DNA of 64,000 nucleotides from Escherichia coli (GTDB lineage Bacteria; Pseudomonadota; Gammaproteobacteria; Enterobacterales; Enterobacteriaceae): assembly GCF_024700885.2 (NCBI RefSeq), contig NZ_CP117016.1. One strand, 5' to 3'. Under the pieces are notes generated by a model. The model was not told the origin of the DNA, ran no database searches, and saw only the letters and a list, made by a program, of their open reading frames with translations. Shown here piece after piece: positions 718 through 62,445 of the stretch (within the stretch, counting starts at the first letter, position 1; every line of letters starts with the position of its first letter). The position numbers and the translations under genes are program-made.

Positions 718-1902
718 CTATTCGTCACGTTCAATGGTCAATGCCACGCCCTGGCCCCCGCCGATACAAAGCGTAGCCAGTCCTTTGCGGGCATTACGTT
801 TCACCATTTCATGAACCAGAGAAACGAGGATTCGGCAACCGGAAGCGCCTATTGGATGACCGAGTGCGATCGCGCCACCATTGACATTGACCCGACGCTC
901 ATCCCATTCAAGCATCTTGCCAACCGAAAGCGCCTGTGCAGCAAACGCTTCATTAGCCTCGATAAGATCGACATCAGCCAACTGCCAGCCAACACGCTCC
1001 AGGCAACGGCGGGTCGCATACACCGGCGCAATTCCCATCAATGCCGGATCTACACCAACGCTGGCAAATGCGCGGATGCGGGCCAGCACGGGTAAATTCA
1101 ACGCTCGTGCTTTGGCTTCGCTCATCATCATTACTGCAGCTGCGCCATCGTTTATGGATGATGCATTACCCGCTGTCACAGAGCCGAGACTATCAAATGA
1201 AGGATTTAAACGGGCTAAGCCTTCTGTACTGGCGTCAGTGCGTGGCTGTTCATCGGTATCTACAACCAACGTCTGACCGTTACTTTGGGTCATTACCGGG
1301 ACGATCTCATCTTTAAATCGTCCGGCGTCAATCGCCGCTCGCGCTTTTTGTTGCGAGCTAAGTGCGTAAGCATCCTGCAACTGACGGCTGATGCCATATT
1401 CGCGAGCCAGATTTTCGGCGGTGACACCAATATGATAATCATTGAAGGCATCCCACAACCCATCGTGCACAAGACTATCAACCAACTGGCTATTGCCAAG
1501 CTGTGCACCAGTGCGGCTATCAGTCAGAACATGTGGTGCGCGGCTCATGTTTTCCTGGCCACCGGCGATGACAATATCAGCCTCGCCACACTGTATCGCC
1601 TGAGTAGCCAGATGCAGTGCTTTAAGCCCGGAACCGCAAACGTCATTAATAGTGATTGCAGAAACGCTGTTAGGAAGACCACCTTTAATAGCCGATTGCC
1701 TTGCCGGATTCTGCCCTGCCCCTGCAGTCAACACCTGACCAAGAATCACTTCATCCACCGCATATGCAGGAACACCGGTACGTTCTATTAACGCTTTCAC
1801 GACCAGGCTGCCAAGTTCCACGGCGGAATGACCCGCTAACGCACCACGAAAGCAGCCGATAGGTGTCCGTAACGCCCCGACAATCACAACGTCTTTCATC
1901 AC
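718..1902 (-). CDS. yqeF: acetyl-CoA acetyltransferase (thiolase)
   Basis: 394-aa ORF with thiolase signatures (VCGSGL active-site Cys region, C-terminal CIGGGQG); the second Met at 1899 may be the true start. Confidence 0.9.
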   Translation of the reverse strand: MMKDVVIVGALRTPIGCFRGALAGHSAVELGSLVVKALIERTGVPAYAVDEVILGQVLTAGAGQNPARQSAIKGGLPNSVSAITINDVCGSGLKALHLATQAIQCGEADIVIAGGQENMSRAPHVLTDSRTGAQLGNSQLVDSLVHDGLWDAFNDYHIGVTAENLAREYGISRQLQDAYALSSQQKARAAIDAGRFKDEIVPVMTQSNGQTLVVDTDEQPRTDASTEGLARLNPSFDSLGSVTAGNASSINDGAAAVMMMSEAKARALNLPVLARIRAFASVGVDPALMGIAPVYATRRCLERVGWQLADVDLIEANEAFAAQALSVGKMLEWDERRVNVNGGAIALGHPIGASGCRILVSLVHEMVKRNARKGLATLCIGGGQGVALTIERDE

Positions 1903-2153
1903 AACCTCGCACCAATTAACAGTGCAATAGTAAATGATTGTTAATAACAGTTATCTTAATTGTTTAAAAAAAGTGATTTTTATCACAAAGGAAATACGCC
2001 TGACCAGCGGTCAGAGACATAACTGGCACGTAAGGTTTGCAACCACTAACCCACCAATAGAGAGGTAGAAAGGGCGTTAATCTCCCATACTTAACCTGGT
2101 TTATGGTAAATTGCCCTCCATTTTGTTTAATTTGTAGATGATACGTTCAGATA

Positions 2154-3383
2154 ATGTCTAATATTTGGTCAAAAGAAGAAACTCTGTGGAGTTTCGCGCT
2201 CTACGGCACAGCCGTTGGTGCAGGCACGCTCTTCCTTCCTATTCAGTTAGGTTCGGCAGGGGCTGTGGTCCTGTTTATTACTGCTCTGGTCGCCTGGCCT
2301 TTAACATATTGGCCACATAAAGCCTTATGCCAGTTCATCCTCTCATCAAAAACATCAGCAGGTGAAGGGATAACGGGCGCGGTAACACACTACTATGGCA
2401 AGAAGATTGGTAATCTGATTACCACGCTGTACTTCATCGCCTTTTTTGTCGTCGTGTTGATATATGCCGTGGCAATTACCAACTCACTTACGGAACAGCT
2501 GGCAAAGCATATGGTTATTGATCTTCGCATCCGTATGTTGGTGAGTCTGGGTGTTGTATTAATCCTGAATCTCATTTTTCTAATGGGACGCCATGCCACT
2601 ATTCGGGTAATGGGATTTTTGGTATTCCCATTGATTGCCTATTTCTTATTTCTTTCTATTTACCTGGTCGGTAGTTGGCAACCTGATCTATTAACTACCC
2701 AGGTAGAGTTCAATCAGAATACCCTTCACCAGATATGGATATCGATTCCCGTGATGGTTTTCGCCTTTAGCCATACGCCCATTATTTCTACGTTTGCCAT
2801 AGACAGACGTGAAAAATATGGCGAACATGCTATGGATAAATGCAAAAAAATTATGAAAGTCGCTTATCTCATCATCTGCATAAGTGTACTGTTCTTTGTC
2901 TTTAGCTGCCTGCTTTCTATTCCACCTTCGTATATTGAAGCGGCTAAAGAAGAAGGGGTTACCATTTTATCGGCGCTTTCTATGCTGCCGAACGCCCCAG
3001 CATGGTTGTCAATTTCCGGGATTATTGTCGCAGTCGTTGCGATGTCGAAATCATTCCTGGGTACGTACTTTGGCGTTATTGAAGGTGCCACGGAGGTCGT
3101 CAAAACAACACTGCAGCAGGTTGGTGTAAAGAAAAGTCGTGCATTTAACCGCGCACTATCAATTATGTTGGTATCGCTGATTACCTTCATTGTTTGTTGC
3201 ATTAACCCGAACGCGATATCGATGATTTACGCGATCAGCGGCCCGCTCATTGCCATGATACTTTTCATCATGCCTACGCTGTCAACATATCTCATCCCGG
3301 CGCTTAAACCCTGGCGTTCCATCGGAAATCTGATTACGCTGATCGTGGGTGTCCTGTGCGTATCGGTAATGTTCTTTAGCTAA
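2154..3383 (+). CDS. yqeG: multi-pass membrane transporter (amino-acid permease-like)
   Basis: 409-aa highly hydrophobic ORF with many predicted transmembrane segments; position after yqeF matches K-12 order. Confidence 0.85.
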   Translation: MSNIWSKEETLWSFALYGTAVGAGTLFLPIQLGSAGAVVLFITALVAWPLTYWPHKALCQFILSSKTSAGEGITGAVTHYYGKKIGNLITTLYFIAFFVVVLIYAVAITNSLTEQLAKHMVIDLRIRMLVSLGVVLILNLIFLMGRHATIRVMGFLVFPLIAYFLFLSIYLVGSWQPDLLTTQVEFNQNTLHQIWISIPVMVFAFSHTPIISTFAIDRREKYGEHAMDKCKKIMKVAYLIICISVLFFVFSCLLSIPPSYIEAAKEEGVTILSALSMLPNAPAWLSISGIIVAVVAMSKSFLGTYFGVIEGATEVVKTTLQQVGVKKSRAFNRALSIMLVSLITFIVCCINPNAISMIYAISGPLIAMILFIMPTLSTYLIPALKPWRSIGNLITLIVGVLCVSVMFFS

Positions 3384-3393
3384 TATCCATTGT

Positions 3394-3436
3394 GAATGGT
3401 TCAAAATTGCTACAATTTTGAACCATTCCAGTTTTC
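3394..3436 (+). terminator. rho-independent terminator after yqeG
   Basis: Perfect 16-bp inverted repeat GAATGGTTCAAAATTG / CAATTTTGAACCATTC with a 3-nt loop, followed by a T-rich tract. Confidence 0.6.
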
Positions 3437-3842
3437 ATAATGTTCATTTGTTATAATTCCGCTCTATCACTTCTCTCGTCATATCCTAGTATTATCAGTT
3501 AGTTAAACACACAAAGAGATCTGAACATCTTAAATAAGACTATTTAAGATGCATAACTTAGATTCGCAAGATATCTTCTGGTCATTCAAAAACAATTTGC
3601 GATATAGATATTCTCATACCATGAGATAGTTATCTGAACCACCATCAACCAGGTAAGATTAAATCAGTGAAACATAATCATATTTAATAACGAGAAATGC
3701 ATTTTTAAATGCTTTACTCAGAATTATAGCAAATACAGATTAATCGCAATTTTTCCCAGCAAAATTACAAAATCATGGTGTATTGACATCATCAATAACC
3801 AATGAAATTATGCAATTATATACGGATAGGGAGGTTCTTAAC

Positions 3843-4475
3843 ATGGGGCTTTGTAGTCGTTATAAAAGTCTTACATGCAATAGTTGCTCAATGCATTGCC
3901 AAATAATGCCAGAAGAGTCACCGCGTTTGCAGTATTGCGCAAACTCGTGTTTTTGTATGTGGCCCGAAGAAAGTTCATATTTTAATCGTGGTGTGGTGGA
4001 AGGTATCTTAACAAAAAACCACAATGCGAGATTAAGCGGATATATTTTTGTCGATTTTTCAGTAAGTTTTTTACGTCTATTCCTTGAAAAAGACTGGATT
4101 GACTATCTTGCAAGTACTGACATGGGGATTGTTTTAGTCAGCGACCGAAATATGCAATCGTTAGCTAACTACTGGCGAAAACACAACTCTGCAATATCTG
4201 CTGTCATATATAATGATGATGGTCTTGATGTTGCCAATGAAAAGATCAGACAACTATTTATTGGTCGTTATTTATCATTTACCAGAGGGAACACATTAAC
4301 TCAGATGGAATTCACCATAATGGGATATATGGTTTCTGGTTATAATCCATATCAGATTGCTGAAGTTCTGGATATGGATATCCGTAGCATCTACGCGTAC
4401 AAGCAACGAATCGAAAAGAGAATGGGTGGTAAAATAAACGAGTTATTTATTCGTTCACATTCGGTCCAACATTGA
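3843..4475 (+). CDS. yqeH: LuxR-family transcriptional regulator (ETT2-island remnant)
   Basis: ORF-track ORF 3783..4475 begins at TTG; the ATG at 3843 (MGLCSRYKSL...) gives 210 aa; C-terminal helix-turn-helix region of LuxR/GerE type (NTLTQMEFTIMGYMVSGYNPYQIAEVLDMDIRSIYAYKQRIEKRM); AT-rich codon usage. Confidence 0.8.
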   Translation: MGLCSRYKSLTCNSCSMHCQIMPEESPRLQYCANSCFCMWPEESSYFNRGVVEGILTKNHNARLSGYIFVDFSVSFLRLFLEKDWIDYLASTDMGIVLVSDRNMQSLANYWRKHNSAISAVIYNDDGLDVANEKIRQLFIGRYLSFTRGNTLTQMEFTIMGYMVSGYNPYQIAEVLDMDIRSIYAYKQRIEKRMGGKINELFIRSHSVQH

Positions 4476-4508
4476 TACTCAATAATCTGCCAGAATCATA
4501 CTCTGCTT

Positions 4509-4540
4509 ATACGGGCATCTATTGAAATGCCCGTATTTTA
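4509..4540 (+). terminator. rho-independent terminator after yqeH
   Basis: 10-bp perfect stem ATACGGGCAT / ATGCCCGTAT with an 8-nt loop, followed by TTTTAC. Confidence 0.6.
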
Positions 4541-4688
4541 CAAATAAGCAGTACCCCCAAGAGTAAACAACATGGTATTTAAAACCATCACACGAAAAAT
4601 TCAGAAGCATTACGAAATATGAATTTACAAACAGGTGATGCTGCCAACTTACTGATTTAGTGTATGATGGTGTTTTTGAGGTGCTCCA

Positions 4689-4964
4689 GTGGCTTCTGTT
4701 TCTATCAGCTGTCCCTCCTGTTCAGCTACTGACGGGGTGGTGCGTAACGGCAAAAGCACCGCCGGACATCAGCGCTATCTCTGCTCTCACTGCCGTAAAA
4801 CATGGCAACTGCAGTTCACTTACACCGCTTCTCAACCCGGTACGCACCAGAAAATCATTGATATGGCCATGAATGGCGTTGGATGCCGGGCAACTGCCCG
4901 CATTATGGGCGTTGGCCTCAACACGATTTTACGTCACTTAAAAAACTCAGGCCGCAGTCGGTAA
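4689..4964 (+). CDS. insA: IS1 InsA (transposition repressor)
   Basis: 91-aa [40 protein letters not shown]... recognised as IS1 InsA; GTG start. Confidence 0.95.
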
Positions 4965-5386
4965 CCTCGCGCATACAGCCGGGCAGTGACGTCATCGTCT
5001 GCGCGGAAATGGACGAACAGTGGGGCTATGTCGGGGCTAAATCGCGCCAGCGCTGGCTGTTTTACGCGTATGACAGTCTCCGGAAGACGGTTGTTGCGCA
5101 CGTATTCGGTGAACGCACTATGGCGACGCTGGGGCGTCTTATGAGCCTGCTGTCACCCTTTGACGTGGTGATATGGATGACGGATGGCTGGCCGCTGTAT
5201 GAATCCCGCCTGAAGGGAAAGCTGCACGTAATCAGCAAGCGATATACGCAGCGAATTGAGCGGCATAACCTGAATCTGAGGCAGCACCTGGCACGGCTGG
5301 GACGGAAGTCGCTGTCGTTCTCAAAATCGGTGGAGCTGCATGACAAAGTCATCGGGCATTATCTGAACATAAAACACTATCAATAA
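4883..5386 (+). CDS. insB: IS1 InsB frame; the transposase InsAB' is made by a -1 frameshift at the TTAAAAAACTC motif near 4936-4946
   Basis: 167-aa ORF matching InsB; A6C slippery motif present in the insA/insB overlap. Confidence 0.9.
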
Positions 5387-5638
5387 GTTGGAGTCATTAC
5401 CCAGTCTGTCGATGACATTACAATGCCAGGATGGGCTTTATCTTCACGTTGTGCTATCGCGGTGTGAGAGGTGCAACTGCCGCCAACGTTAGGTTATACT
5501 GTCATCTCACCGTGTAACTTAACGTGACAGTTACTAAGGGCGGATCACAATGGTAGAACTCCTAAGCAAATTAAATAGGTAACTGTTTAAGTTGCTGACA
5601 GAGAAGACTTTTTTGGTCTTCTCCACCTGGGGAGATTC

Positions 5639-5712
5639 TGGAGCGGGCGAAGGGAATCGAACCCTCGTATAGAGCTTGGGAAGCTCTCGTTCTACCATTG
5701 AACTACGCCCGC
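5639..5712 (-). tRNA. glyU: tRNA-Gly (anticodon CCC)
   Basis: Reverse complement reads GCGGGCGTAGTTCAATGGTAGAACGAGAGCTTCCCAAGCTCTATACGAGGGTTCGATTCCCTTCGCCCGCTCCA with encoded CCA. Confidence 0.95.
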
Positions 5713-5790
5713 TTCGAGATGCGTAAGGCATTATAAACCTTACGCTCTCCTTAGCAAGTGCCGCGCTGCTGACTGCTGATTAATTCGCCA

Positions 5791-6567
5791 TCAGCATTTT
5801 GGCTTGCTGCTCTGAGGCGGCAAGTAACGCAGCGGATCAATTGCCGTAGCACGGTAACGAATCTGGAAATGCAGGCGAACCGATGCCGCATCAGTGCTCC
5901 CCATAGTGGCGATTTTTTGCCCAGCCTTCACGCTTTGCCCATTATTTACCAGCATCGTGTCATTATGGGCGTAAGCCGTAATGTAATCTTCACTGTGTTT
6001 AATCATGATGAGATTACCGTAGCCACGCAGCTGGTTGCCCACATACACCACCTTTCCTGCACCCGCGGCGTAAATAGGTGTACCTCGTGGAGCTGAGATA
6101 TCAATCCCTTTATTGCCGCCATCAGCTGTCGAATACGGCATGATAACTTTCCCTGTCGTTGGCCATAACCAACAACGTTGCCCTACTGGCGGCCAGGAAG
6201 ATTTCGGTACTGCTGATGACGGTGTAACCGATGCGGTTTTGGTCGTTGATTTGGCGGTTGATTTACGTGTACTGCTACTTTTCGCCCCACCCAGTTTTAG
6301 TTTCTGACCAACTTCAATGGTGTAAGGGGGGGAAATGCCGTTCAGTCGCGCCAGCTCTTTTACGCTGGTTCCCGTGGTGCGCGAAATACGATATAGCGTA
6401 TCCCCCCGTTTCACGGTGTAAACGGAGCCGGAATACGTTCCTGTATCGGATGATTTGCTACCCGAGCAGCCCGCCAAAAGCAGTCCAACCGATAACAACA
6501 TCACGATACCCAGAGATTTTTTATTCAGGCGTCCCGCACTCAAAATCTTTCCTCGCTTAAAAAACAA
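5791..6567 (-). CDS. ygeR: LysM-domain / M23-family peptidase lipoprotein
   Basis: 258-aa ORF; lipobox LLLAGCSG; LysM motif (YTVKRGDTLYRISRTTGTSVKELARLNGI); M23 peptidase-like C-terminus. Confidence 0.85.
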   Translation of the reverse strand: MFFKRGKILSAGRLNKKSLGIVMLLSVGLLLAGCSGSKSSDTGTYSGSVYTVKRGDTLYRISRTTGTSVKELARLNGISPPYTIEVGQKLKLGGAKSSSTRKSTAKSTTKTASVTPSSAVPKSSWPPVGQRCWLWPTTGKVIMPYSTADGGNKGIDISAPRGTPIYAAGAGKVVYVGNQLRGYGNLIMIKHSEDYITAYAHNDTMLVNNGQSVKAGQKIATMGSTDAASVRLHFQIRYRATAIDPLRYLPPQSSKPKC

Positions 6568-6902: not shown

Positions 6903-6997
6903 CTGCTTAGACTAAATCTTTGCCATAAGAACCAAATGTTCAAATCGAGGGGATTTCTATGGAAGCGCGGGAAGCAACCGCTACGGGTGAATCTTGC

Positions 6998-9256
6998 ATG
7001 CGCGTCGATGCCATTGCTAAGGTCACCGGGCGGGCACGATATACTGACGATTATGTTATGGCGGGCATGTGTTACGCGAAATATGTACGTAGCCCTATCG
7101 CACATGGTTATGCCGTAAGTATTAATGATGAACAAGCCAGAAGTTTACCAGGCGTACTGGCGATTTTTACCTGGGAAGATGTACCTGATATCCCATTCGC
7201 TACAGCTGGGCATGCCTGGACACTTGACGAAAACAAGCGCGATACCGCCGATCGCGCACTGCTAACTCGCCATGTTCGTCATCATGGTGACGCCGTTGCC
7301 ATCGTCGTGGCCCGTGATGAACTCACGGCAGAAAAAGCGGCGCAATTGGTCAGCATTGAGTGGCAAGAATTACCCGTTATCACCACGCCAGAAGCGGCGC
7401 TGGCAGATGACGCTGCACCAATCCATAACGGCGGCAATTTACTAAAACAAAGCTCGATGTCGACGGGTAATGTCCAACAAACAATCGATGCCGCCGATTA
7501 CCAGGTGCAGGGGCACTATCAGACGCCGGTCATTCAACATTGTCACATGGAAAGCGTGACATCGCTGGCATGGATGGAGGATGACTCGCGAATTACCATC
7601 GTTTCCAGCACCCAGATCCCGCACATTGTTCGCCGTGTGGTTGGTCAGGCGCTGAATATTCCCTGGTCATGCGTACGAGTCATCAAACCGTTTGTCGGTG
7701 GCGGTTTTGGTAATAAACAGGATGTACTGGAAGAGCCAATGGCGGCATTCCTGACCAGCAAGCTTGGCGGCATTCCGGTGAAAGTTTCCCTTAGCCGTGA
7801 AGAGTGTTTCCTCGCAACCCGTACCCGCCACGCTTTTACTATTGACGGGCAAATGGGCGTGAACCGCGACGGAACATTGAAAGGTTATAGTCTGGATGTT
7901 CTGTCTAACACCGGCGCTTATGCATCTCACGGGCACTCCATCGCTTCTGCAGGGGGGAATAAAGTCGCTTACCTTTATCCTCGTTGTGCCTACGCTTACA
8001 GTTCAAAGACCTGCTATACCAACCTCCCCTCGGCTGGTGCGATGCGTGGTTATGGCGCGCCACAAGTCGTATTTGCCGTTGAGTCTATGCTTGATGACGC
8101 CGCGACAGCGTTAGGTATTGATCCTGTTGAAATTCGTTTACGCAACGCCGCCCGCGAAGGAGATGCTAATCCGCTCACAGGCAAACGTATTTACAGCGCA
8201 GGGTTGCCGGAGTGTCTTGAAAAAGGCCGGAAAATCTTTGAATGGGAAAAACGCCGTGCAGAGTGCCAGAACCAGCAAGGCAATTTACGCCGCGGCGTTG
8301 GCGTCGCCTGTTTTAGCTACACCTCTAACACCTGGCCTGTCGGCGTAGAAATTGCTGGCGCGCGCCTGTTGATGAATCAGGATGGAACCATCAACGTACA
8401 GAGTGGTGCCACGGAAATCGGCCAGGGTGCCGACACCGTGTTCTCGCAAATGGTGGCAGAAACCGTGGGGGTTCCGGTCAGCGACATTCGCGTTATTTCA
8501 ACACAAGATACCGACGTTACGCCGTTCGATCCCGGCGCATTTGCCTCACGCCAGAGCTATGTTGCCGCGCCCGCGCTACGCAGTGCGGCACTGTTATTAA
8601 AGGAGAAAATCATCGCTCACGCCGCTGTCATGCTACATCAGTCAGCGATGAATCTTACCTTGATAAAAGGCCATATCGTGCTGGTTGAACGACCGGAAGA
8701 GCCGTTAATGTCGTTAAAAGATTTGGCGATGGATGCCTTCTACCACCCTGAACGCGGCGGGCAGCTCTCTGCCGAAAGCTCCATCAAAACCACCACTAAC
8801 CCACCAGCGTTTGGCTGTACCTTTGTTGATCTGACGATCGATATTGCGCTGTGCAAAGTCACCATCAACCGCATCCTTAACGTTCATGATTCGGGCCATA
8901 TTCTTAATCCGTTGCTGGCAGAAGGTCAGGTACACGGCGGAATGGGAATGGGCATTGGCTGGGCGCTATTTGAAGAGATGATCATCGATGCGAAAAGCGG
9001 CGTGGTCCGTAACCCCAATCTGCTGGATTACAAAATGCCCACCATGCCGGATCTGCCACAACTGGAAAGCGCGTTCGTCGAAATCAATGAGCCGCAATCC
9101 GCATACGGACATAAGTCACTGGGTGAGCCACCAATAATTCCTGTTGCCGCTGCTATTCGTAACGCGGTGAAGATGGCTACCGGTGTTGCAATCAATACAC
9201 TGCCGCTGACGCCAAAACGGTTATATGAAGAGTTCCATCTGGCAGGATTGATTTGA
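6998..9256 (+). CDS. xdhA: xanthine dehydrogenase, molybdopterin-binding subunit
   Basis: 752 aa from the Met at 6998 (MRVDAIAKVTGRARYTDDY...); GGGFGNK molybdopterin-hydroxylase motif; ORF-track N-terminal extension from 6959 rejected. Confidence 0.9.
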   Translation: MRVDAIAKVTGRARYTDDYVMAGMCYAKYVRSPIAHGYAVSINDEQARSLPGVLAIFTWEDVPDIPFATAGHAWTLDENKRDTADRALLTRHVRHHGDAVAIVVARDELTAEKAAQLVSIEWQELPVITTPEAALADDAAPIHNGGNLLKQSSMSTGNVQQTIDAADYQVQGHYQTPVIQHCHMESVTSLAWMEDDSRITIVSSTQIPHIVRRVVGQALNIPWSCVRVIKPFVGGGFGNKQDVLEEPMAAFLTSKLGGIPVKVSLSREECFLATRTRHAFTIDGQMGVNRDGTLKGYSLDVLSNTGAYASHGHSIASAGGNKVAYLYPRCAYAYSSKTCYTNLPSAGAMRGYGAPQVVFAVESMLDDAATALGIDPVEIRLRNAAREGDANPLTGKRIYSAGLPECLEKGRKIFEWEKRRAECQNQQGNLRRGVGVACFSYTSNTWPVGVEIAGARLLMNQDGTINVQSGATEIGQGADTVFSQMVAETVGVPVSDIRVISTQDTDVTPFDPGAFASRQSYVAAPALRSAALLLKEKIIAHAAVMLHQSAMNLTLIKGHIVLVERPEEPLMSLKDLAMDAFYHPERGGQLSAESSIKTTTNPPAFGCTFVDLTIDIALCKVTINRILNVHDSGHILNPLLAEGQVHGGMGMGIGWALFEEMIIDAKSGVVRNPNLLDYKMPTMPDLPQLESAFVEINEPQSAYGHKSLGEPPIIPVAAAIRNAVKMATGVAINTLPLTPKRLYEEFHLAGLI

Positions 9257-10660: not shown

Positions 10661-12439
10661 TTATGTGTTTAACAACTCATATTTCTTAATCTTGCGATAG
10701 AGCGTAGCAATGCCGATGCCCAGTTCATCAGCAACTTGCTTCTTGCTGTTATGACGTGAAAGCGCCTCGCGGATCATTTGCTTTTCCATCTCCTCCAGCG
10801 CCGTGCCGCCCGCATCATCGAGTGCCAGGTGCGCCTCGTTGACCTCTGTTACATCACTTTGCTCCGTTGTGCCATTATTCAGCAGATTTGGCGGCAATAG
10901 CGTGCTGTCGATAACTTCACCTGAAGGAACCACGTTAACCAGATATTCCATCAAATTGCTTAACTCGCGCAGGTTTCCGGGCCAACGATGCTTACGCAAT
11001 ATTTCGACGACATCGGGAGCAATGCCCGGATAAACCGATCCCAGACGACGGGTATGCAGATGTAAAAAGTAATGCACCAGTAGTTCAATATCTTCCTGAC
11101 GTTCACGCAGCGGTGGCAGAGTTATCGGGATAACATTAAGTCGGTAGAAGAGATCTTCGCGGAATTTACCTTCGGCAATGAACTGGGCCAAATTCTGGTT
11201 AGTTGCAGAAATGATGCGAATGTCGACTTGTATTGGGCTACTGGCACCAATCGGCAGAATTTCACGCGCCTCAATAGCGCGCAGTAATTTAGCCTGCAAC
11301 ATTAATGGCATATCACCTATTTCATCGAGAAACAGCGTGCCCGTATTCGCCGCCTGAATCAACCCTGTTTTACCGTTGGCAGAAGCGCCAGTAAATGCGC
11401 CTTTAACATAACCGAACAGTTCGCTCTCCAGAAGCTGCTCCGGAATCGCGGCACAGTTGATAGCAATAAAGGGTTTATTCCGTCTTCCGCTCAACTTATG
11501 GATTGCACGGGCGACAACTTCTTTACCCGTGCCGCTTTCACCAACCACCATAACGCTGGATGGGCTGGGTGCAATACGGCTAATGAGTCGTTTTAATTGC
11601 CGCATAACACGGCACTCGCCAACCAATTGTTCAATATGCGGTTCATCAGGTGCATTTGCTACAGAAAAACTGGTATGCGATTGGTGAAACGCCATTAAAA
11701 ATAATTGTCGGCCCTGAATGTTATGCAATTGACCAATGATTAATTCACTTTTATCGTCCCACGAAACAATATGCTGCATATGTCCATGGGTAAAATTACT
11801 CTCAAATGTTAATGGTCTGAAACGGATAGGTTTCCCAATAATATTATTTTGTACAACACCAAGTGTTTTTAAGGCAGTCTGATTAACAAACTGAATCCGA
11901 TTATCGTCATCAACAACTAATACACCCTGATCCATATTATCGATCATGGTCGCGAATATTTTACTGATGTTATCTCCTGGTCCCTGATCCTCCAGAAGTT
12001 TCGAAACAAAAATGGTGGATATATGGCGAACGTAATCAGAAAATTCGCGTAAATTATCACTAATATGCTCTTGTTGCTCGTGGGTAACGGCAATCAAACT
12101 TATCACCCCAACACAACGATCCTGTAAAATGACAGGCGTACCCAGAAATGCTTTTTCGCGGCAATTTTCTTTACTATCGCAACCTTCGCAAAGGGGATCG
12201 AAGCGAGACTGTGTCACAACTTTTTCAGTTTTCGTTTCCAGGACGTGGCGGAGCAGGCGTGAGTTGCCGCTCAACTGGCGACCAAGAAACTTCCCATACG
12301 CGCCCGTTCCGGCGACGCGACACAAGTTTTCATCAACGATCTCAACCTCAAGCTGCAAAACGCTGGCAAGCATTCTGGCAAAACGCTGAATTGTCGGTTG
12401 AATTTGCATCAATACTGACTGCGTAGTAGCAAGCTCCAT
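10661..12439 (-). CDS. ygeV: sigma54-dependent transcriptional activator (bacterial enhancer-binding protein)
   Basis: 592-aa ORF with AAA+ Walker A GESGTGKE, the sigma54-contact motif GAFTGA, and a C-terminal helix-turn-helix. Confidence 0.9.
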   Translation of the reverse strand: MELATTQSVLMQIQPTIQRFARMLASVLQLEVEIVDENLCRVAGTGAYGKFLGRQLSGNSRLLRHVLETKTEKVVTQSRFDPLCEGCDSKENCREKAFLGTPVILQDRCVGVISLIAVTHEQQEHISDNLREFSDYVRHISTIFVSKLLEDQGPGDNISKIFATMIDNMDQGVLVVDDDNRIQFVNQTALKTLGVVQNNIIGKPIRFRPLTFESNFTHGHMQHIVSWDDKSELIIGQLHNIQGRQLFLMAFHQSHTSFSVANAPDEPHIEQLVGECRVMRQLKRLISRIAPSPSSVMVVGESGTGKEVVARAIHKLSGRRNKPFIAINCAAIPEQLLESELFGYVKGAFTGASANGKTGLIQAANTGTLFLDEIGDMPLMLQAKLLRAIEAREILPIGASSPIQVDIRIISATNQNLAQFIAEGKFREDLFYRLNVIPITLPPLRERQEDIELLVHYFLHLHTRRLGSVYPGIAPDVVEILRKHRWPGNLRELSNLMEYLVNVVPSGEVIDSTLLPPNLLNNGTTEQSDVTEVNEAHLALDDAGGTALEEMEKQMIREALSRHNSKKQVADELGIGIATLYRKIKKYELLNT

Positions 12440-12749
12440 AGCTTTACCTTCCAGACTTACTTAAAAGTCGATCATTGAAGACGTTGATGGTTCACAGATC
12501 ATGATGATATTAACTCAGGCGAAATTGGCTTTGATAAAAACATAAGATTTTTATCACTTTCTAATGAAATTATGGAAGAGATATCACATTTCTATATCAA
12601 TATGAGAATTACGGCGGTGAGTTTATCAAACTGAAGAGAGAGCGCCTGTTCCTTTATCTTATTTCTGATACTTAGCAGCAAATAAATAACGCGATAAAAA
12701 AAGCCAAACGTTTTCGTATTTTACAAACAACCAGAAGCTGGCATCAATT

Positions 12750-12765
12750 TGTGATCAACCCCACA
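12750..12765. promoter_or_regulatory. CRP-like site TGTGATCAACCCCACA upstream of ygeW
   Basis: TGTGA-N6-CCACA, 9 of 10 matches to the CRP half-sites TGTGA-N6-TCACA. Confidence 0.35.
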
Positions 12766-12808
12766 CATTACCCGTCAAATTAGTCTTTTGCAGCCGCTTG
12801 GATAATTC

Positions 12809-12823
12809 TGGCATAGTTATTGT
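12809..12823 (+). promoter_or_regulatory. candidate sigma54 -24/-12 element TGGCATAGTTATTGT upstream of ygeW
   Basis: GG at -24 spacing and TTGT in place of TTGC; about 90 bp upstream of the ygeW start. Confidence 0.3.
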
Positions 12824-12915
12824 TAGTCCCAGGTATAGCTGTGAAAAGACCAATCACTTTTGGCAAGTCACAGTGAAATAAACCTCTTTGCCTGTCATTC
12901 CACTACCGGGACTTT

Positions 12916-14106
12916 ATGATGAAAACTGTTAATGAGCTGATTAAGGATATCAATTCGCTGACCTCTCACCTTCACGAGAAAGATTTTTTGTTAACGTGGG
13001 AACAGACGCCAGATGAACTGAAACAAGTACTGGACGTTGCCGCAGCATTAAAAGCACTGCGTGCTGAAAACATCTCAACCAAAGTCTTTAATAGTGGATT
13101 AGGTATTTCCGTATTCCGCGACAACTCCACCCGTACCCGTTTCTCTTATGCTTCCGCGCTTAACCTGCTCGGCCTTGCACAGCAAGATCTCGACGAAGGC
13201 AAATCACAAATCGCTCACGGCGAAACCGTGCGTGAAACCGCCAATATGATCTCCTTCTGCGCCGATGCCATCGGTATTCGTGACGATATGTATCTGGGCG
13301 CAGGCAACGCCTATATGCGTGAAGTTGGCGCTGCACTTGATGACGGTTACAAGCAGGGTGTGCTGCCGCAACGTCCGGCTTTAGTGAACCTGCAATGCGA
13401 TATTGACCACCCGACTCAGTCAATGGCTGACCTGGCATGGTTACGTGAACACTTTGGTTCACTGGAAAACCTGAAAGGTAAAAAAATCGCCATGACCTGG
13501 GCCTACTCCCCAAGCTATGGCAAACCGCTCTCTGTACCACAAGGCATCATCGGTCTGATGACTCGCTTCGGTATGGATGTCACCCTGGCCCATCCGGAAG
13601 GCTACGACCTGATCCCGGATGTCGTTGAAGTCGCTAAAAACAATGCTAAAGCCTCCGGCGGTAGCTTCCGTCAGGTCACCAGCATGGAAGAAGCCTTCAA
13701 AGACGCAGACATCGTTTATCCGAAGTCATGGGCACCTTACAAAGTGATGGAAGAGCGTACTGAATTGCTGCGTGCGAACGATCACGAAGGCTTAAAAGCA
13801 CTGGAAAAACAGTGTCTGGCACAGAACGCGCAACACAAAGACTGGCATTGTACTGAAGAGATGATGGAACTGACCCGTGATGGCGAAGCCCTGTACATGC
13901 ACTGCCTGCCAGCTGATATCAGCGGCGTATCCTGCAAAGAAGGTGAAGTGACTGAAGGCGTATTCGAAAAATACCGTATCGCGACCTACAAAGAAGCCAG
14001 CTGGAAGCCTTATATCATCGCCGCGATGATCCTGTCCCGCAAATACGCCAAACCAGGTGCACTGCTCGAGCAACTGCTGAAAGAAGCGCAAGAACGCGTG
14101 AAATAA
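12916..14106 (+). CDS. ygeW: carbamoyltransferase (ornithine/aspartate transcarbamylase superfamily)
   Basis: 396-aa ORF with the carbamoyl-phosphate-binding STRTR motif and HCLP motif. Confidence 0.85.
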   Translation: MMKTVNELIKDINSLTSHLHEKDFLLTWEQTPDELKQVLDVAAALKALRAENISTKVFNSGLGISVFRDNSTRTRFSYASALNLLGLAQQDLDEGKSQIAHGETVRETANMISFCADAIGIRDDMYLGAGNAYMREVGAALDDGYKQGVLPQRPALVNLQCDIDHPTQSMADLAWLREHFGSLENLKGKKIAMTWAYSPSYGKPLSVPQGIIGLMTRFGMDVTLAHPEGYDLIPDVVEVAKNNAKASGGSFRQVTSMEEAFKDADIVYPKSWAPYKVMEERTELLRANDHEGLKALEKQCLAQNAQHKDWHCTEEMMELTRDGEALYMHCLPADISGVSCKEGEVTEGVFEKYRIATYKEASWKPYIIAAMILSRKYAKPGALLEQLLKEAQERVK

Positions 14107-20760: not shown

Positions 20761-21531
20761 CTAATTCACAAATCTGCGCGCGATTGCAGGATGTTCTTGT
20801 ATATCGCCCAGCCAGATTGCCTCTACGTCGTGTTGTTGCAGCGGTTGAAGGAGCTCGCTTTGTGCAATCGCATTCTCACATTGAGAAAAACGGTTAATGA
20901 ACCAGACTCGCCGACAACCTTGCGGTACGTTTTTAAATGCGCCCTGAGGGTGGCGAACCAGCGCAACGAGATCGCTCAGTTGCAAGGTTGCATCAGGTGT
21001 TAACCCGGTAATATCAGCAAACTGCGACCAGCGATGGACATTTTCTGTGCTCACTTTCGCGCCCAAAATATGTCCTCCCATCACAGCAATCACGCAGCAA
21101 CTGCTTTTGGGTATGCAAGGTTCGTGCTCATCAGGCGCTTTTAACGTCATTCCACGCGAGCCATCTGCCTCAATGAGAATTACGTCACACTCTGGTCGTT
21201 GCACCAGTGCATCAATCGCTTCTGGCGTAAATCCCTGCACTTTTCCCTGGTTCGCTTTCCAGCTGTGAAAACAAAATGAAATGGGGGATGTAAGAGACGC
21301 ATGAGGAAGCATGGCGGGATCACGACAGAAAACCACGGGCCAGTGAGACGTTGGCATAAACATATGTGTCGTCGTAGTGATTAACACACGCCTGCCGCTA
21401 GCCTGGAGCAGTTCTGCCAGCCAAAAAAGCAAGCTGGTTTTCCCCCCAGCCCCAACAACAGAAATCACAGTGGGACGTTTCTGCGCGCCTAAATCAATGA
21501 ATAATGCCGATGGGTCAACTATACTTTTCAC
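20761..21531 (-). CDS. yqeC: selenium-dependent molybdenum hydroxylase system protein (YqeC family)
   Basis: 256-aa ORF with P-loop-like VVGAGGKTS; synteny. Confidence 0.75.
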   Translation of the reverse strand: MKSIVDPSALFIDLGAQKRPTVISVVGAGGKTSLLFWLAELLQASGRRVLITTTTHMFMPTSHWPVVFCRDPAMLPHASLTSPISFCFHSWKANQGKVQGFTPEAIDALVQRPECDVILIEADGSRGMTLKAPDEHEPCIPKSSCCVIAVMGGHILGAKVSTENVHRWSQFADITGLTPDATLQLSDLVALVRHPQGAFKNVPQGCRRVWFINRFSQCENAIAQSELLQPLQQHDVEAIWLGDIQEHPAIARRFVN

Positions 21532-21633
21532 GAGTCTTTATGACCTCTCTGGGATAAATTATCCCCAACTTAATCCATCAGGAAGTAACGCAATTATCAG
21601 GCGTTATTAGCCCCTATAAATAATGGAACCACT

Positions 21634-22212
21634 ATGTCAGCCATCGACTGTATAATTACCGCTGCCGGATTATCATCAAGAATGGGGCAATGGAAAATGA
21701 TGTTACCCTGGCAACAGGGAACAATTCTTGATACAAGTATCAAAAATGCGTTGCAGTTTTGTAGCCGAATTATTTTAGTCACCGGCTATCGTGGTAATGA
21801 ACTGCACGAGCGTTATGCGAACCAGAGCAATATCACTATTATCCACAACCCAGATTATGCGCAGGGTTTACTAACATCAGTAAAGGCCGCAGTACCCGCG
21901 GTAAAAACAGAATATTGTTTTCTCACCCACGGTGACATGCCTACCCTCACCATCGATATTTTTAGAAAAATCTGGTCGTTACGAAATGATGGCGCAATAC
22001 TGCCACTCCATAATGGCATTCCCGGCCATCCGATTTTAGTGTCAAAGCCATGCCTGATGCAGGCAATCCAGCGTCCCAATATCACCAATATGCGTCAGGC
22101 ACTCCTTATGGGAGATCATTATTCCGTCGAAATAGAAAATGCAGAAATAATTTTAGATATTGATACTCCGGACGACTTTATTACAGCGCAAAAAAGGTAT
22201 ACTAAAATTTAG
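21634..22212 (+). CDS. mocA: molybdenum cofactor cytidylyltransferase (MobA-like)
   Basis: 192-aa ORF with MobA-like nucleotidyltransferase N-terminus (AAGLSSRMG). Confidence 0.8.
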   Translation: MSAIDCIITAAGLSSRMGQWKMMLPWQQGTILDTSIKNALQFCSRIILVTGYRGNELHERYANQSNITIIHNPDYAQGLLTSVKAAVPAVKTEYCFLTHGDMPTLTIDIFRKIWSLRNDGAILPLHNGIPGHPILVSKPCLMQAIQRPNITNMRQALLMGDHYSVEIENAEIILDIDTPDDFITAQKRYTKI

Positions 22213-22366
22213 AAAATGTAGTTAAACGATTGCGTTCAAATATTTAATCCCTCCAGCACTCTTTATCATAATGATAAGGAATCACTGATTTTGAGAAAAG
22301 AGAAAAAGTGATAAATGGGCTGGCAATAATAATTTTCAGGAGTGATTTTAATTCTCATTTGGCACC

Positions 22367-22382
22367 TGTGAGTTCATTCACA
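22367..22382. promoter_or_regulatory. CRP binding site TGTGAGTTCATTCACA upstream of ygfK
   Basis: Perfect match to both CRP consensus half-sites TGTGA-N6-TCACA. Confidence 0.55.
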
Positions 22383-22436
22383 AAAAGCTCCTAAGTTTCG
22401 AGCCGCCTCACATTTTTTTATATTTCCCGCCAAACC

Positions 22437-22452
22437 TGGCAAGAGTGGTGCG
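22437..22452 (+). promoter_or_regulatory. candidate sigma54 -24/-12 element TGGCAAGAGTGGTGCG upstream of ygfK
   Basis: GG-N10-GC spacing correct; about 80 bp upstream of the ygfK start. Confidence 0.3.
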
Positions 22453-22533
22453 ATTGTTGCTCTATCCCCCTAAACCACCGGATTTCTCAACACCGGTCAC
22501 TCAATGATATCTGTATAAGCTAAGGAGAGGGTT

Positions 22534-61433: not shown

Positions 61434-61617
61434 ATTTCTCTGAGATGTTCGCAAGCGGGCCAGTCCCCTGAGCCGATATTTCATACCACAAGAATGTGGC
61501 GCTCCGCGGTTGGTGAGCATGCTCGGTCCGTCCGAGAAGCCTTAAAACTGCGACGACACATTCACCTTGAACCAAGGGTTCAAGGGTTACAGCCTGCGGC
61601 GGCATCTCGGAGATTCC
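61434..61617 (+). ncRNA. ssrS: 6S RNA (RNA polymerase sigma70-holoenzyme regulator)
   Basis: Matches the remembered 6S sequence ATTTCTCTGAGATGTTCGCAAGCGGGCCAGTCCCCTGAGCC...GGCATCTCGGAGATTCCCT. Confidence 0.9.
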
Positions 61618-62240: not shown

Positions 62241-62301
62241 GGGCGACACACCTGCATCGCCCTGATTGACATCGTTGATTCTTTAACCTAATTTAGTGAG
62301 T

Positions 62302-62445
62302 AAGGGTAAGGGAGGATGACTCCTCCCCTGAGACTGACTGTTAATAAGCTGGGAAACTTATGAGTAACAGTACAATCAGTATGATGACAAGTCGCATCAT
62401 AACCCTTCTCCTTCAAGCCCTCGCTTCGGTGAGGGCTTTACCGTT
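62302..62445 (+). ncRNA. sibC: SibC-like antisense sRNA (type I antitoxin), ends approximate
   Basis: Putative promoter TTGACA (62266-62271), 17-bp spacer, TAATTT (62289-62294); fully antisense to ibsC; 3' hairpin AGCCCTCGCTTCGGTGAGGGCT. Confidence 0.5.
62341..62400 (-). CDS. ibsC: IbsC-family 19-aa hydrophobic toxin (type I toxin-antitoxin)
   Basis: Reverse strand encodes ATG ATG CGA CTT GTC ATC ATA CTG ATT GTA CTG TTA CTC ATA AGT TTC CCA GCT TAT TAA = MMRLVIILIVLLLISFPAY; AAGGAG Shine-Dalgarno upstream. Confidence 0.75.
   Translation of the reverse strand: MMRLVIILIVLLLISFPAY

Follow-up and report, generated by a model that had tools for sequence, protein, structure and literature searches.

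Organization of the yqeG-glyU interval

The window considered here is the whole 64,000-nucleotide stretch of Escherichia coli DNA that was analyzed. An AT-rich block (3384-4633) carrying yqeH lies in this window between yqeG and the tRNA gene glyU; the order is yqeG, the block, an IS1 element, 237 bp of other DNA, and glyU. K-12, O157, and strain 1190 share this yqeG-to-glyU site. The limits of the block are exact to the base, 3384 being the first base past the yqeG stop codon and 4633 the last before the left inverted repeat of IS1. Comparisons among genes use a set of 48 whose annotation was transferred from strain MLI114, which differs from the window by one mismatch in 64 kb. The features of the interval are given below.

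2154-3383: yqeG, ending directly before the block
3384-3557, no strand: AT-rich core spacer 3' of yqeG, 174 bp, 30.5% GC, also in ETT2-free E. coli
3394-3428: terminator-like hairpin of yqeG, 16 perfect pairs, -22.5 kcal/mol, z = -7.7
3558-4633, + strand: remnant of the ETT2 island (its left-most 1,076 bp), 35.1% GC, 100% identity to strain 1190
3558-3842: part of the remnant before yqeH, 30.2% GC
3783-3811, + strand: σ70 promoter-like site 5' of yqeH, TTGACA-17-AATTAT with TG before the -10 element, 10/12 in a consensus scan
3843-4475, + strand: yqeH, intact, 210 aa, 37.6% GC, annotated as WP_001305805.1 in MLI114, 1190, and SMS-3-5
4476-4633: part of the remnant after yqeH, 34.2% GC
4510-4539, + strand: terminator-like hairpin 3' of yqeH, UACGGGCAU/AUGCCCGUA, then UUUU
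4634-5401, + strand: IS1 (IS1A-like), 768 bp, 53.3% GC, insA/insB with programmed frameshift
5402-5638, no strand: remnant of a phage-like integrative element (glyU-proximal end), 237 bp, 45.1% GC, not ETT2
5639-5712, - strand: glyU, tRNA-Gly(CCC), from ARAGORN, Rfam (tRNA, 71.6 bits), and annotation

An AGGGAGG ribosome-binding site is located about 7 nt 5' of the yqeH ATG, and the site at 3783-3811 is a candidate promoter recognized by pattern match. Downstream of the gene, the RNA of 4476-4560 folds at -20.6 kcal/mol (z = -3.99), and none of 200 shuffled sequences folds equally well; a simple terminator scan missed the hairpin at 4510-4539 because its T-run has just four T. At a permissive Rfam threshold, glyU is the sole match in 3300-5800. 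No direct repeats were found in 3300-5900, and therefore there are no att-like repeats at the IS1 or the ETT2 remnant here.

Base composition and codon usage

An earlier note on this DNA described yqeH and its flanks as markedly more AT-rich than core genes such as xdhA, with an AT-rich codon choice, and both descriptions agree with the measurements. The block has 34.5% GC, as compared to 50.9% across the full window, and coincides with the lowest 1250-bp stretch: in 1250-bp windows taken every 10 bp over the 64 kb (mean 51.0%, sd 3.8%), the minimum of 34.4% starts at 3381, and only 0.02% of these windows have GC as low as the block. Among the 48 genes yqeH is lowest both in GC (37.6% versus 51.8 +/- 3.2%; z = -4.45) and in GC at third codon positions (GC3, 34.0% versus 54.9 +/- 5.5%; z = -3.8); the values for xdhA are 52.8 and 52.7%, respectively.

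The codon adaptation index (CAI), which the same note proposed as a check, is low for yqeH and has no diagnostic value. With the window's own genes as reference, yqeH is at the bottom of the 48 genes (0.577; z = -2.2). With the Sharp-Li weights, yqeH is no outlier (0.201; z = -1.5) and ygfX is even lower (0.195). GC3 and the CAI against the window-own reference are more reliable than the Sharp-Li CAI.

Extension of the AT-rich island leftward into yqeG was considered and rejected; yqeG is present in ETT2-free strains and has an unremarkable GC3 (49.5%). Its low overall GC stems from the first two codon positions, a pattern to be expected of a membrane protein.

The left end of ETT2

ETT2 is a 29.9-kb island adjoining glyU, with 36.9% GC as compared to 50.8% for the chromosome, that has undergone widespread attrition (PMC11068852, PMC3977695); its acquisition is ancient and preceded the split of E. 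coli and E. albertii (PMC4700944). In strain 1190, a 1,250-bp block identical to that of the window is followed by yqeI and, up to glyU, the eiv/epa/epr type III secretion genes. In that strain the interval from glyU to the left edge of the island spans 27,666 bp, and positions 3558-4633 correspond to its final 1,076 bp. A BLAST search with the whole island found no match in the 64-kb window for the rest of it (~26.6 kb), including the epr/epa/eiv secretion apparatus genes. Judged by these alignments, 3558-4633 is a remnant with no secretion system.

Over 2000-4633 the window is identical to strain 1190 (100%) and close to O157:H7 (97.9%) and K-12 (97.6%). An ETT2 origin could be refuted if ETT2-bearing relatives did not share 3558-4633; they do share it. 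At least 80% of the length of the block is found in 3,952 of 5,426 complete E. coli genomes, and yqeH is annotated in it every time. The composition of the remnant is also that of the island, since ETT2 of strain 1190 has 35.8% GC and its 1250-bp windows average 35.8 +/- 2.9%. Comparative evidence, and not composition alone, shows yqeH to be the sole surviving ETT2 gene in this strain. The suggestion in the earlier note that yqeH is a horizontally acquired regulator is borne out by its position within sequence 100% identical to the left end of ETT2 in strain 1190, and the further suggestion that the rest of the island was lost is supported by the presence of just 1,076 of the 27,666 bp.

The flanks of yqeH, which that note also took to be foreign, are of two kinds. 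The sequence from 3558 on belongs to ETT2, but the first 174 bp of the block do not. Alignment of the ETT2-free strain EC5654 to the window runs to 3557 and restarts at glyU (5639), and about 1,215 of the 5,426 complete genomes match segment 3384-3557 only, at 90-95% identity. Since this segment is present in ETT2-free strains, it is core spacer and not island DNA. The ETT2-free strains carry another, 141-bp spacer that is absent from the window.

The remnant resembles ETT2 of other strains in its site between yqeG and glyU, the 97-100% identity of its left-end sequence, a GC content of ~35-37%, yqeH as the first gene, and attrition through deletions and IS elements (PMC11068852, PMC3977695). 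It differs in having one gene left, whereas K-12 has about 15 gene remnants and intact islands have 35 ORFs, and in a right junction that lies within a second, unrelated element. ETT2 isoforms in a 2024 review lack 3-13 genes or have deletions of 5-8.7 kb, and the same review mentions E. albertii strains in which just yqeF and yqeG remain. A yqeH-only isoform ending at IS1 was not found described in the ETT2 literature consulted, mainly reviews.

The IS1 junction and the second glyU element

The IS1 next to the remnant is annotated in RefSeq as an IS1A-family transposase with programmed frameshift; its insA and insB ORFs are present, and its terminal inverted repeats are imperfect (23 bp, 18 of 23 positions matching). 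A target-site duplication of ~9 bp is the sign of a simple IS1 insertion. The sequences flanking 4634-5401, TTACAAACA and CAGTCTGTC, show no such duplication, as expected at a deletion junction mediated by the element, and the two flanks are DNAs that are not contiguous elsewhere.

In O26:H11 strain FWSEC0001, a 13.5-kb element with genes for an integrase and a major capsid protein lies beside glyU, bordered by a 22-nt repeat of the 3' end of glyU. Its first 237 bp, counted from glyU, match the DNA to the right of IS1 (5402-5638) at 99.6% identity. The glyU 3' end is the attachment point of this second element, while glyU is also the landmark that adjoins ETT2. The possibility that 5402-5638 is the right end of ETT2 was ruled out; it has no match to the sequence adjoining glyU in K-12 or in B2-type strains, nor to that of ETT2-free strains, and it is the end of the glyU-integrated element.

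Of the 5,426 complete genomes, just five match the IS1 junctions in a single piece, and they are the same five for both: MLI114, SMS-3-5, and three others. Other genomes have IS1 copies at varied distances from the same anchor, giving two-piece matches that span 327-743 bp, and some of these copies interrupt yqeI; the varied positions mark the AT-rich spacer as a recurrent IS1 target. A single IS1 without the 9-bp duplication, where distant sequences have been joined, is the expected signature of an IS1-mediated deletion. The locus is like known cases of adjacent deletion or inter-copy recombination in that a lone complete IS1 joins sequences separated by tens of kilobases in relatives; it differs in that the event is seen here from its product alone, which fits both mechanisms. 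No precursor with IS1 at either junction and intact DNA beyond it was present among the complete genomes searched, and the deletion mechanism and the ancestral content (full or decayed ETT2) are therefore inferred.

Very probably, the block consists of 174 bp of core spacer and the left-most 1,076 bp of ETT2, left by an IS1-associated deletion, with the locus possibly silenced by H-NS. The proposed history would begin with ETT2, an SPI-1-like type III secretion island, gained long ago by horizontal transfer in the E. coli/E. albertii lineage, its GC content having stayed at ~36%. A deletion in the MLI114/SMS-3-5 lineage, either an adjacent deletion caused by intramolecular transposition of IS1 or recombination between a pair of IS1 copies, would then have extended from 158 bp 3' of yqeH to 237 bp before glyU. 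As IS1 lies between the end of ETT2 and the end of the second element, a single IS1-associated deletion probably took most of both islands, i.e., ~26.6 kb of ETT2 (judged by the closest intact relative) and almost the entire phage-like element. The survivor is a complete yqeH transcription unit, with its promoter-like site, ribosome-binding site, ORF, and terminator-like hairpin.

Loss of ETT2 next to an IS1 is ordinary island decay and a case already understood. Earlier work has documented ETT2 with its low GC, its placement beside glyU, and its erosion through deletions and IS elements, and has named yqeH as one of its regulators. The locus has little importance past bookkeeping, and its value lies in three modest points. 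It is a clean case, resolved to the base pair, in which a single deletion bounded by IS1 took away most of two stacked islands; it cautions against reading AT-richness as stand-alone proof of foreign origin; and the yqeH-only lineage (MLI114, SMS-3-5, and the three others) provides a natural background in which to test secretion-system-independent action of YqeH.

Retention and regulation of yqeH

The earlier note referred to yqeH as a regulator retained after loss of the island. The gene is indeed intact, but selection for keeping it does not follow, as the deletion endpoint may merely reflect the position of IS1. There is a substantial chance, although somewhat below even, that yqeH is a neutral leftover that was spared because the deletion-nucleating IS1 sat downstream and that has no role without the secretion system. 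The deletion boundary is exactly the IS1 end, in a spacer that is a recurrent IS1 target, and the event is shared by five genomes only, with too few later substitutions to test constraint. All five keep an intact yqeH encoding the same protein, WP_001305805.1, and the two sub-lineages differ in yqeH by two synonymous and no non-synonymous changes, a count without statistical power. Across E. coli, in contrast, yqeH is under strong purifying selection; dN/dS is ~0.03 relative to the K-12, O157, and O26 alleles (7-8 synonymous differences and 1 non-synonymous difference). The gene is intact in K-12, O157, O26, and strain 1190, even beside ETT2 pseudogenes, and in the window the entire transcription unit was kept, all of which argues against a neutral leftover.

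In favor of a neutral leftover, the homologous K-12 region is non-transcribed, H-NS-bound DNA (PMC12460168); a K-12 yqeG-ygeL fragment serves as an H-NS-binding template and forms H-NS hairpin structures, or CHINs (PMC12460168), and the spacer between yqeH and yqeI appears in a list of H-NS-associated "promoter islands" (PMC3661553). In its GC content (30-38%) and its homology to the K-12 CHIN fragment, the block is similar to the AT-rich CHIN domains silenced by H-NS/StpA, but the AT-rich DNA left at the locus is only 1.25 kb long, less than a reported median CHIN length of 2 kb. By analogy with the K-12 region, the locus may be bound and largely silenced by H-NS/StpA.

The phenotypes of an avian pathogenic E. 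coli (APEC) mutant, which involve non-ETT2 genes, are evidence against the neutral alternative. With yqeH deleted, strain APEC40 is less motile, adherent, and virulent and forms less biofilm, and its transcripts of flg/fli, lsr, and c-di-GMP genes are reduced (PMC9014576); these functional data come from one APEC strain in which ETT2 genes are still present, and complementation was only partial (PMC9014576). Under the favored reading, that of a remnant carrying a complete yqeH unit, YqeH would bind DNA through its C-terminal helix-turn-helix domain once expressed and, as in the APEC mutant, might modulate flagellar, biofilm, and adhesion genes outside the island.

YqeH as a member of the EcpR/MatA family

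YqeH is a regulator of the EcpR/MatA family in which an N-terminus rich in Cys precedes a predicted receiver-like domain and a LuxR/GerE helix-turn-helix. It is 26% identical to K-12 MatA over 172 aa (E = 6e-17), with residues 39-201 aligned. The Pfam GerE domain (PF00196) is a marginal pass (23.7 bits at residues 151-195; cut-off 23.5), and its assignment is supported by a helical bundle at 154-203 in the AlphaFold2 model (pLDDT 90) and by LuxR-type structural matches. EcpR_N (PF27348) is among the precomputed Pfam hits for YqeH clusters and homologues; a local Pfam search returned no EcpR_N match to YqeH. With the NCBIfam equivalog for EcpR (NF047921; cut-off 300), YqeH scores 73.8 bits and K-12 MatA 342; YqeH is a paralogue of EcpR/MatA, a regulator of fimbriae and motility, and not EcpR. 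There are no fimbrial genes near yqeH in the window, and it is not adjacent to an ecp/mat operon; a homologue that is 50% identical to YqeH (P0042) sits upstream of a chaperone-usher operon.

YqeH and MatA share full-length homology, the EcpR_N plus GerE architecture, and a similar size and AT-richness. MatA activates mat/ecp and represses flhDC (summarized in bioRxiv 10.64898/2025.12.14.694247), and YqeH likewise affects motility and biofilm genes (PMC9014576), although with the opposite reported sign for motility, as the yqeH deletion mutant is less motile. Two features of YqeH are missing from MatA: the N-terminal CxxCxxxC...C motif and Asp101, which lies at the predicted phospho-acceptor position of the receiver.

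The best full-length Foldseek matches of the YqeH model are RcsB, DesR, VpsT, and EvgA (E = 2.5e-5 to 3e-4, probability 1.0). The predicted receiver fold is a beta-alpha repeat at 37-139 with four clear strands only and TM-scores of just 0.23-0.40; Pfam Response_reg has no match to YqeH at E <= 0.1, and a PDB sequence search gave nothing below E = 0.069. Asp101, at the end of the third beta strand, occurs in 50 of the 56 family members aligned, and MatA has Ala at this position. From the topology of the model and the motif VLVSDRNM, D101 is presumed equivalent to D57 of CheY. In the model, YqeH would resemble NarL/FixJ regulators such as RcsB, EvgA, VpsT, and DesR in pairing a receiver-like alpha/beta domain with a C-terminal LuxR helix-turn-helix, and differs from them by the extra Cys-rich N-terminal extension. 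No histidine kinase gene is adjacent to yqeH in the window.

A speculative extension, for which the chances are rather low, is that the YqeH subfamily comprises orphan atypical response regulators with a four-Cys (CxxCxxxC...x12...C) metal- or redox-sensing module and the Asp kept at the phospho-acceptor position, and that YqeH acts as a stand-alone, H-NS-gated regulator of core motility, biofilm, and adhesion genes after loss of the secretion system. If so, ETT2 would have left behind a functional regulator and not junk.

Origin of the AT-richness

Composition by itself is unspecific for foreign origin; AT-richness alone is no proof, because the core paralogue matA is equally AT-rich. For yqeH and its flanks, low GC might instead be intrinsic to the family and linked to regulation (e.g., for H-NS control), which is improbable as a replacement for foreign origin; the two can both hold. 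In each context examined, the homologue has lower GC than its neighbors: K-12 matA has 39.1% and its upstream spacer 36.6%, versus 53.8% for the co-transcribed ecp genes; the Citrobacter koseri homologue has 42.9%, versus 49-56% in its flanks; and P0042 has 43.2%, versus 57-59% in its flanks, including the downstream fimbrial operon. The 174 bp of core spacer (30.5% GC) are, moreover, as AT-rich as the island part. Against this explanation, the whole 27.6-kb island with the identical yqeH allele has 35.8% GC, the structural type III secretion genes included; the segment is a presence/absence polymorphism beside a tRNA gene; and ETT2 is treated as horizontally acquired (PMC11068852, PMC3977695, PMC4700944).

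Later import of the yqeH block by homologous recombination from an ETT2-bearing strain into a lineage that was first ETT2-free is very improbable. In its favor, the block matches strain 1190 at 100% identity, whereas 15 differences in 3.2 kb separate the window from the SMS-3-5 group, 7 of them clustered at the yqeG 3' end as a hint of recombination nearby. Import needs a right homology arm, however, and the block ends instead at an IS1 that lacks a target duplication and is followed by sequence from another element; in addition, the 141-bp spacer of ETT2-free strains is missing, and both junctions are identical in two diverged sub-lineages.

Composition of the yqeH Block

The limits that the earlier note gave for the AT-rich block containing yqeH (3384-4633) are exact: 3384 lies directly after the yqeG stop codon and 4633 directly before the inverted repeat of an IS1. 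The gene order around it is as follows.

Features at the yqeG-glyU locus (window coordinates)
718-1899, minus strand, yqeF
2154-3383, plus strand, yqeG
3843-4475, plus strand, yqeH (210 aa)
4634-5401, IS1
5402-5638, 237-bp segment
5639-5712, minus strand, glyU, tRNA-Gly(CCC)
5791-6543, minus strand, actS/ygeR
6959-9256, plus strand, xdhA

The GC content of the block is 34.5%, against 50.9% for the whole window. Sliding-window GC falls from about 46% at the yqeG end to 30-38% over 3400-4600 and is 50-56% from 4600 on; windows of 1250 bp average 51.0% (sd 3.8%) and reach their minimum, 34.4%, at start position 3381, so that the block is practically the window minimum, and 0.02% of such windows are as low in GC. 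Codon usage was compared among 48 intact genes of the window, using the RefSeq annotation of MLI114, which differs from the window by one base in 64 kb. yqeH has the lowest GC (37.6%; others 51.8 ± 3.2%, z = -4.45) and the lowest GC3 (34.0%; others 54.9 ± 5.5%, z = -3.8) of these genes, and xdhA has 52.8 and 52.7%, respectively, which bears out the claims that the block is more AT-rich than its core neighbours and that yqeH shows AT-rich codon choice. The proposed check by codon adaptation index gives a low value for yqeH that is not decisive: with Sharp-Li weights, yqeH scores 0.201 (z = -1.5) and ygfX lower still (0.195); with the window's own genes as reference, yqeH is lowest (0.577, z = -2.2).

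Two weaker GC dips (1-kb windows of 41-46%) occur at 11400-13000, comprising the ygeV 5' end and the ygeV-ygeW spacer, and at 21000-23000 around mocA (GC 42.5%, GC3 41%); the yqeH block is far lower. Rfam matches at 61434-61617 and 62266-62416 are ordinary core features, namely 6S RNA (ssrS) and Sib antitoxin RNA; the ibsC toxin gene adjoins the Sib RNA in the MLI114 annotation.

Origin of the Block

In K-12, O157:H7, and strain 1190, the last of which has an identical yqeH block, the interval between yqeH and glyU carries yqeI, yqeJ, yqeK, ygeF, ygeG, ygeH, and further genes; O157:H7 and strain 1190 have the epr/epa/eiv type III secretion genes there as well. This stretch constitutes the ETT2 island, published as 29.9 kb with a GC content of 36.9% vs. 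50.8% for the chromosome (PMC11068852, PMC3977695). By megablast, at least 80% of the block is covered in 3,952 of 5,426 complete E. coli genomes, always annotated as yqeH; a large class of genomes has just the first 171-174 bp, with 1,215 records in the 90-95% identity band and a typical match of 91.4%. In ETT2-free EC5654, 316 bp separate yqeG from glyU. Because the alignment of this strain to the window stops at 3557 and resumes at 5639, the block is composite, made up of core spacer (3384-3557, GC 30.5%) and ETT2 DNA (3558-4633, GC 35.1%). Within the spacer, at 3394-3428, a perfect hairpin of 16 bp resembles a terminator for yqeG. When the glyU-to-left-edge interval of strain 1190 (27,666 bp) is compared with the window by BLAST, only its last 1,076 bp match, at 100% identity, and 26,590 bp are missing. 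ETT2 of strain 1190 has a GC content of 35.8% (internal 1250-bp windows 35.8 ± 2.9%); the composition of the remnant is thus typical of island DNA.

Composition alone is no proof of foreign origin, because the EcpR/YqeH family is AT-rich at every locus examined and the 174-bp core spacer is equally AT-rich. Genes of this family lie 10-15 GC points under their neighbours at the loci examined (L013-L016): matA, encoding the K-12 fimbrial and motility regulator MatA/EcpR, has 39.1% (L016, 6747-7337) within an ecp operon of 53.8%; the Citrobacter koseri yqeH homologue has 42.9%, with neighbours of about 50-55%; and the gene for P0042, a homologue 50% identical to YqeH, has 43.2%, with neighbours of 57-59%. 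This points to AT-richness as a property that such regulator loci maintain. Comparative evidence establishes that the yqeH remnant is foreign, because it shows presence/absence polymorphism, is identical to the edge of a 27.6-kb AT-rich type III secretion island, and occupies a tRNA-adjacent site. The earlier note's reading of the block as foreign thus stands for 3558-4633, 100% identical to the ETT2 edge of strain 1190, and fails for 3384-3557, which is shared with ETT2-free EC5654; its view that yqeH was left after loss of the rest of the island agrees with the 1,076 of 27,666 bp that remain, with IS1 at the edge.

Acquisition of ETT2 is ancient, since E. albertii has an intact ETT2 at glyU, placing uptake before the E. 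coli/E. albertii split (PMC4700944); other E. coli that are ETT2-free have most likely lost it secondarily. In EC5654, the yqeG-glyU spacer (L003, 6175-6315) includes about 60 bp (GATTGCATTGCGTAAACGC...) that lie in K-12 at the glyU-proximal end of the ETT2 region (L004, 15913-15976) and about 77 bp further, found in neither K-12 nor the window. With DNA common to both ends of the K-12 ETT2 interval, this "empty" site resembles a deletion scar, in line with ancient acquisition and later loss.

IS1 Junction and glyU-Proximal Stub

The block is bounded by a complete 768-bp IS1, annotated with an IS1A-family transposase and programmed frameshift, whose terminal inverted repeats agree at 18 of 23 positions. 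Its 9-bp flanks differ (TTACAAACA vs. CAGTCTGTC), and a target-site duplication is therefore absent. On its left lies the yqeH-yqeI spacer, at a point that in strain 1190 is 176 bp upstream of the yqeI start.

The segment at 5402-5638 was ruled out as ETT2, having no match adjoining glyU in K-12 or ETT2-free strains. Present directly beside glyU in 265 genomes, its sequence supplies the first 237 bp of an element of 13.5 kb in O26:H11 FWSEC0001 (L010, 126-13617). This element has genes for a tyrosine integrase, a recombinase, and a major capsid protein; a direct repeat (22 nt) of the glyU 3' end bounds it, and in size and content it is like a phage satellite. Strain 504838 has a similar element. 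The 237 bp are the stub of this integrative element. Behind it in FWSEC0001 stands, in tandem, a second integrase-bearing element, about 9.1 kb long and ending in an att repeat of 17 nt, and the K-12-like right end of ETT2 comes only after that; glyU has thus been used repeatedly. Within the stub, 22 nt at 5538-5559 form an inverted, 82%-complementary copy of the glyU 5' half at 5689-5710 (GGGCGGATCACAATGGTAGAAC). Here the integrative element seems to carry a tRNA-like fragment, which ARAGORN does not call as a tRNA.

Both junctions are uninterrupted in only five of the 5,426 genomes, the same five for each: MLI114 (Mali), SMS-3-5, GIMC1405 (Russia), WWCOL-236 (South Korea), and 98232 (Egypt). 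In the simplest history, an ancestor with ETT2 and a glyU-integrated phage-like element would have undergone one IS1-associated deletion, by adjacent deletion or by recombination between two IS1 copies, removing everything from the yqeH-yqeI spacer to a point 237 bp from glyU. We infer this mechanism and the ancestral ETT2 state (full or already decayed), since no precursor genome was found among the complete E. coli genomes searched. The locus is a decayed ETT2 isoform, belonging to a thoroughly described class; no isoform with yqeH only, an IS1 end, and a fused stub of a glyU-integrated element was found in the literature searched. The SMS-3-5 genome, however, has long been publicly available, and deletions by such a mechanism are routine.

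IS1 copies occur in dozens of unrelated E. coli genomes at varied distances from the same anchor downstream of yqeH (joined matches span 327-743 bp, some under yqeI), so the AT-rich yqeH-yqeI spacer is a recurrent IS1 target. IS1 prefers AT-rich DNA, with which these recurrent hits agree.

Integrity and Possible Role of yqeH

The remnant appears to retain the whole yqeH transcription unit: a promoter-like site at 3783-3811 (pattern match, TTGACA-17-AATTAT with extended -10), the ribosome-binding site AGGGAGG, the gene, and, at 4510-4539, a hairpin with UUUU behind it (-20.6 kcal/mol, z = -4.0). The 210-aa product is WP_001305805.1 in all five deletion genomes and strain 1190; the K-12, O157, and O26 alleles each depart from it by a single amino acid and by 7-8 synonymous changes (dN/dS about 0.03). 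Between the MLI114 and SMS-3-5 sub-lineages there are 15 differing sites in 3.2 kb, of which the two synonymous and zero non-synonymous in yqeH are too few for a test of constraint.

An APEC40 mutant lacking yqeH is less motile, less adherent, less invasive, and less virulent, forms less biofilm, and has lower levels of flg/fli, lsr, and c-di-GMP-related transcripts, with only partial complementation (PMC9014576), and YqeH has a positive effect on espE3, outside ETT2 (PMC11068852). MatA activates mat/ecp and represses flhDC (summarised in bioRxiv 10.64898/2025.12.14.694247). The K-12 yqeG-ygeL fragment adopts hairpin structures that depend on H-NS and are characteristic of silenced genes acquired by horizontal transfer (PMC12460168), and the yqeH/yqeI spacer is among H-NS-associated promoter islands (PMC3661553). 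In the window strain, H-NS probably still targets the AT-rich locus of 1.25 kb. Once expressed, YqeH would bind DNA via its LuxR helix-turn-helix domain and modulate motility and adhesion genes outside the former island. That yqeH is a neutral leftover, with no role in a strain lacking the secretion system, is the lesser prospect, though a substantial one.

The YqeH Family

The N-terminal part of YqeH is EcpR_N (PF27348, precomputed Pfam matches), and the GerE/LuxR helix-turn-helix match is marginal (23.7 bits, cut-off 23.5). YqeH is 26% identical to K-12 MatA/EcpR over 172 residues (E = 6e-17) and scores 73.8 bits with the EcpR equivalog model, under its cut-off of 300, which makes it a paralogue. 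With 121 representatives at E <= 1e-3 among 1.84 billion, this is a small family. A confident AlphaFold2 model (pLDDT 90, pTM 0.87), built from a 56-sequence alignment, begins with a Cys-rich N-terminal hairpin, which is followed by a receiver-like beta-alpha domain at 37-139 and a helix-turn-helix domain at 154-203. Its best PDB matches, RcsB, DesR, VpsT, and EvgA (E 2.5e-5 to 3e-4, with low TM-scores of 0.23-0.40), are full-length NarL/FixJ-type response regulators, a likeness at the level of the predicted model. Asp101, at the receiver phospho-acceptor position, occurs in 50 of 56 sequences and is Ala in MatA. Residues 1-36 (window 3843-3950) contain the motif C12-x2-C15-x3-C19-x12-C32, conserved in the subfamily (each Cys in about 35 of 56 sequences, all four in 29) and lacking from MatA/EcpR; the motif may be a metal- or redox-binding module. 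A rather unlikely reading is that proteins of the YqeH type, with their conserved four-Cys module, are atypical response regulators of the orphan kind and outlive island loss as functional regulators.

In C. koseri (L013, 1085-3625), the yqeH homologue (82% identical) lies beside yqeI- and yqeJ-like genes on the opposite strand; the group adjoins rcnR/rcnA, and the 6.3-kb contig holds no type III secretion genes. The secretion apparatus of ETT2 and its yqeHIJ "left arm" may be separate modules. The gene for P0042, like matA, lies directly upstream of a chaperone-usher fimbrial operon.
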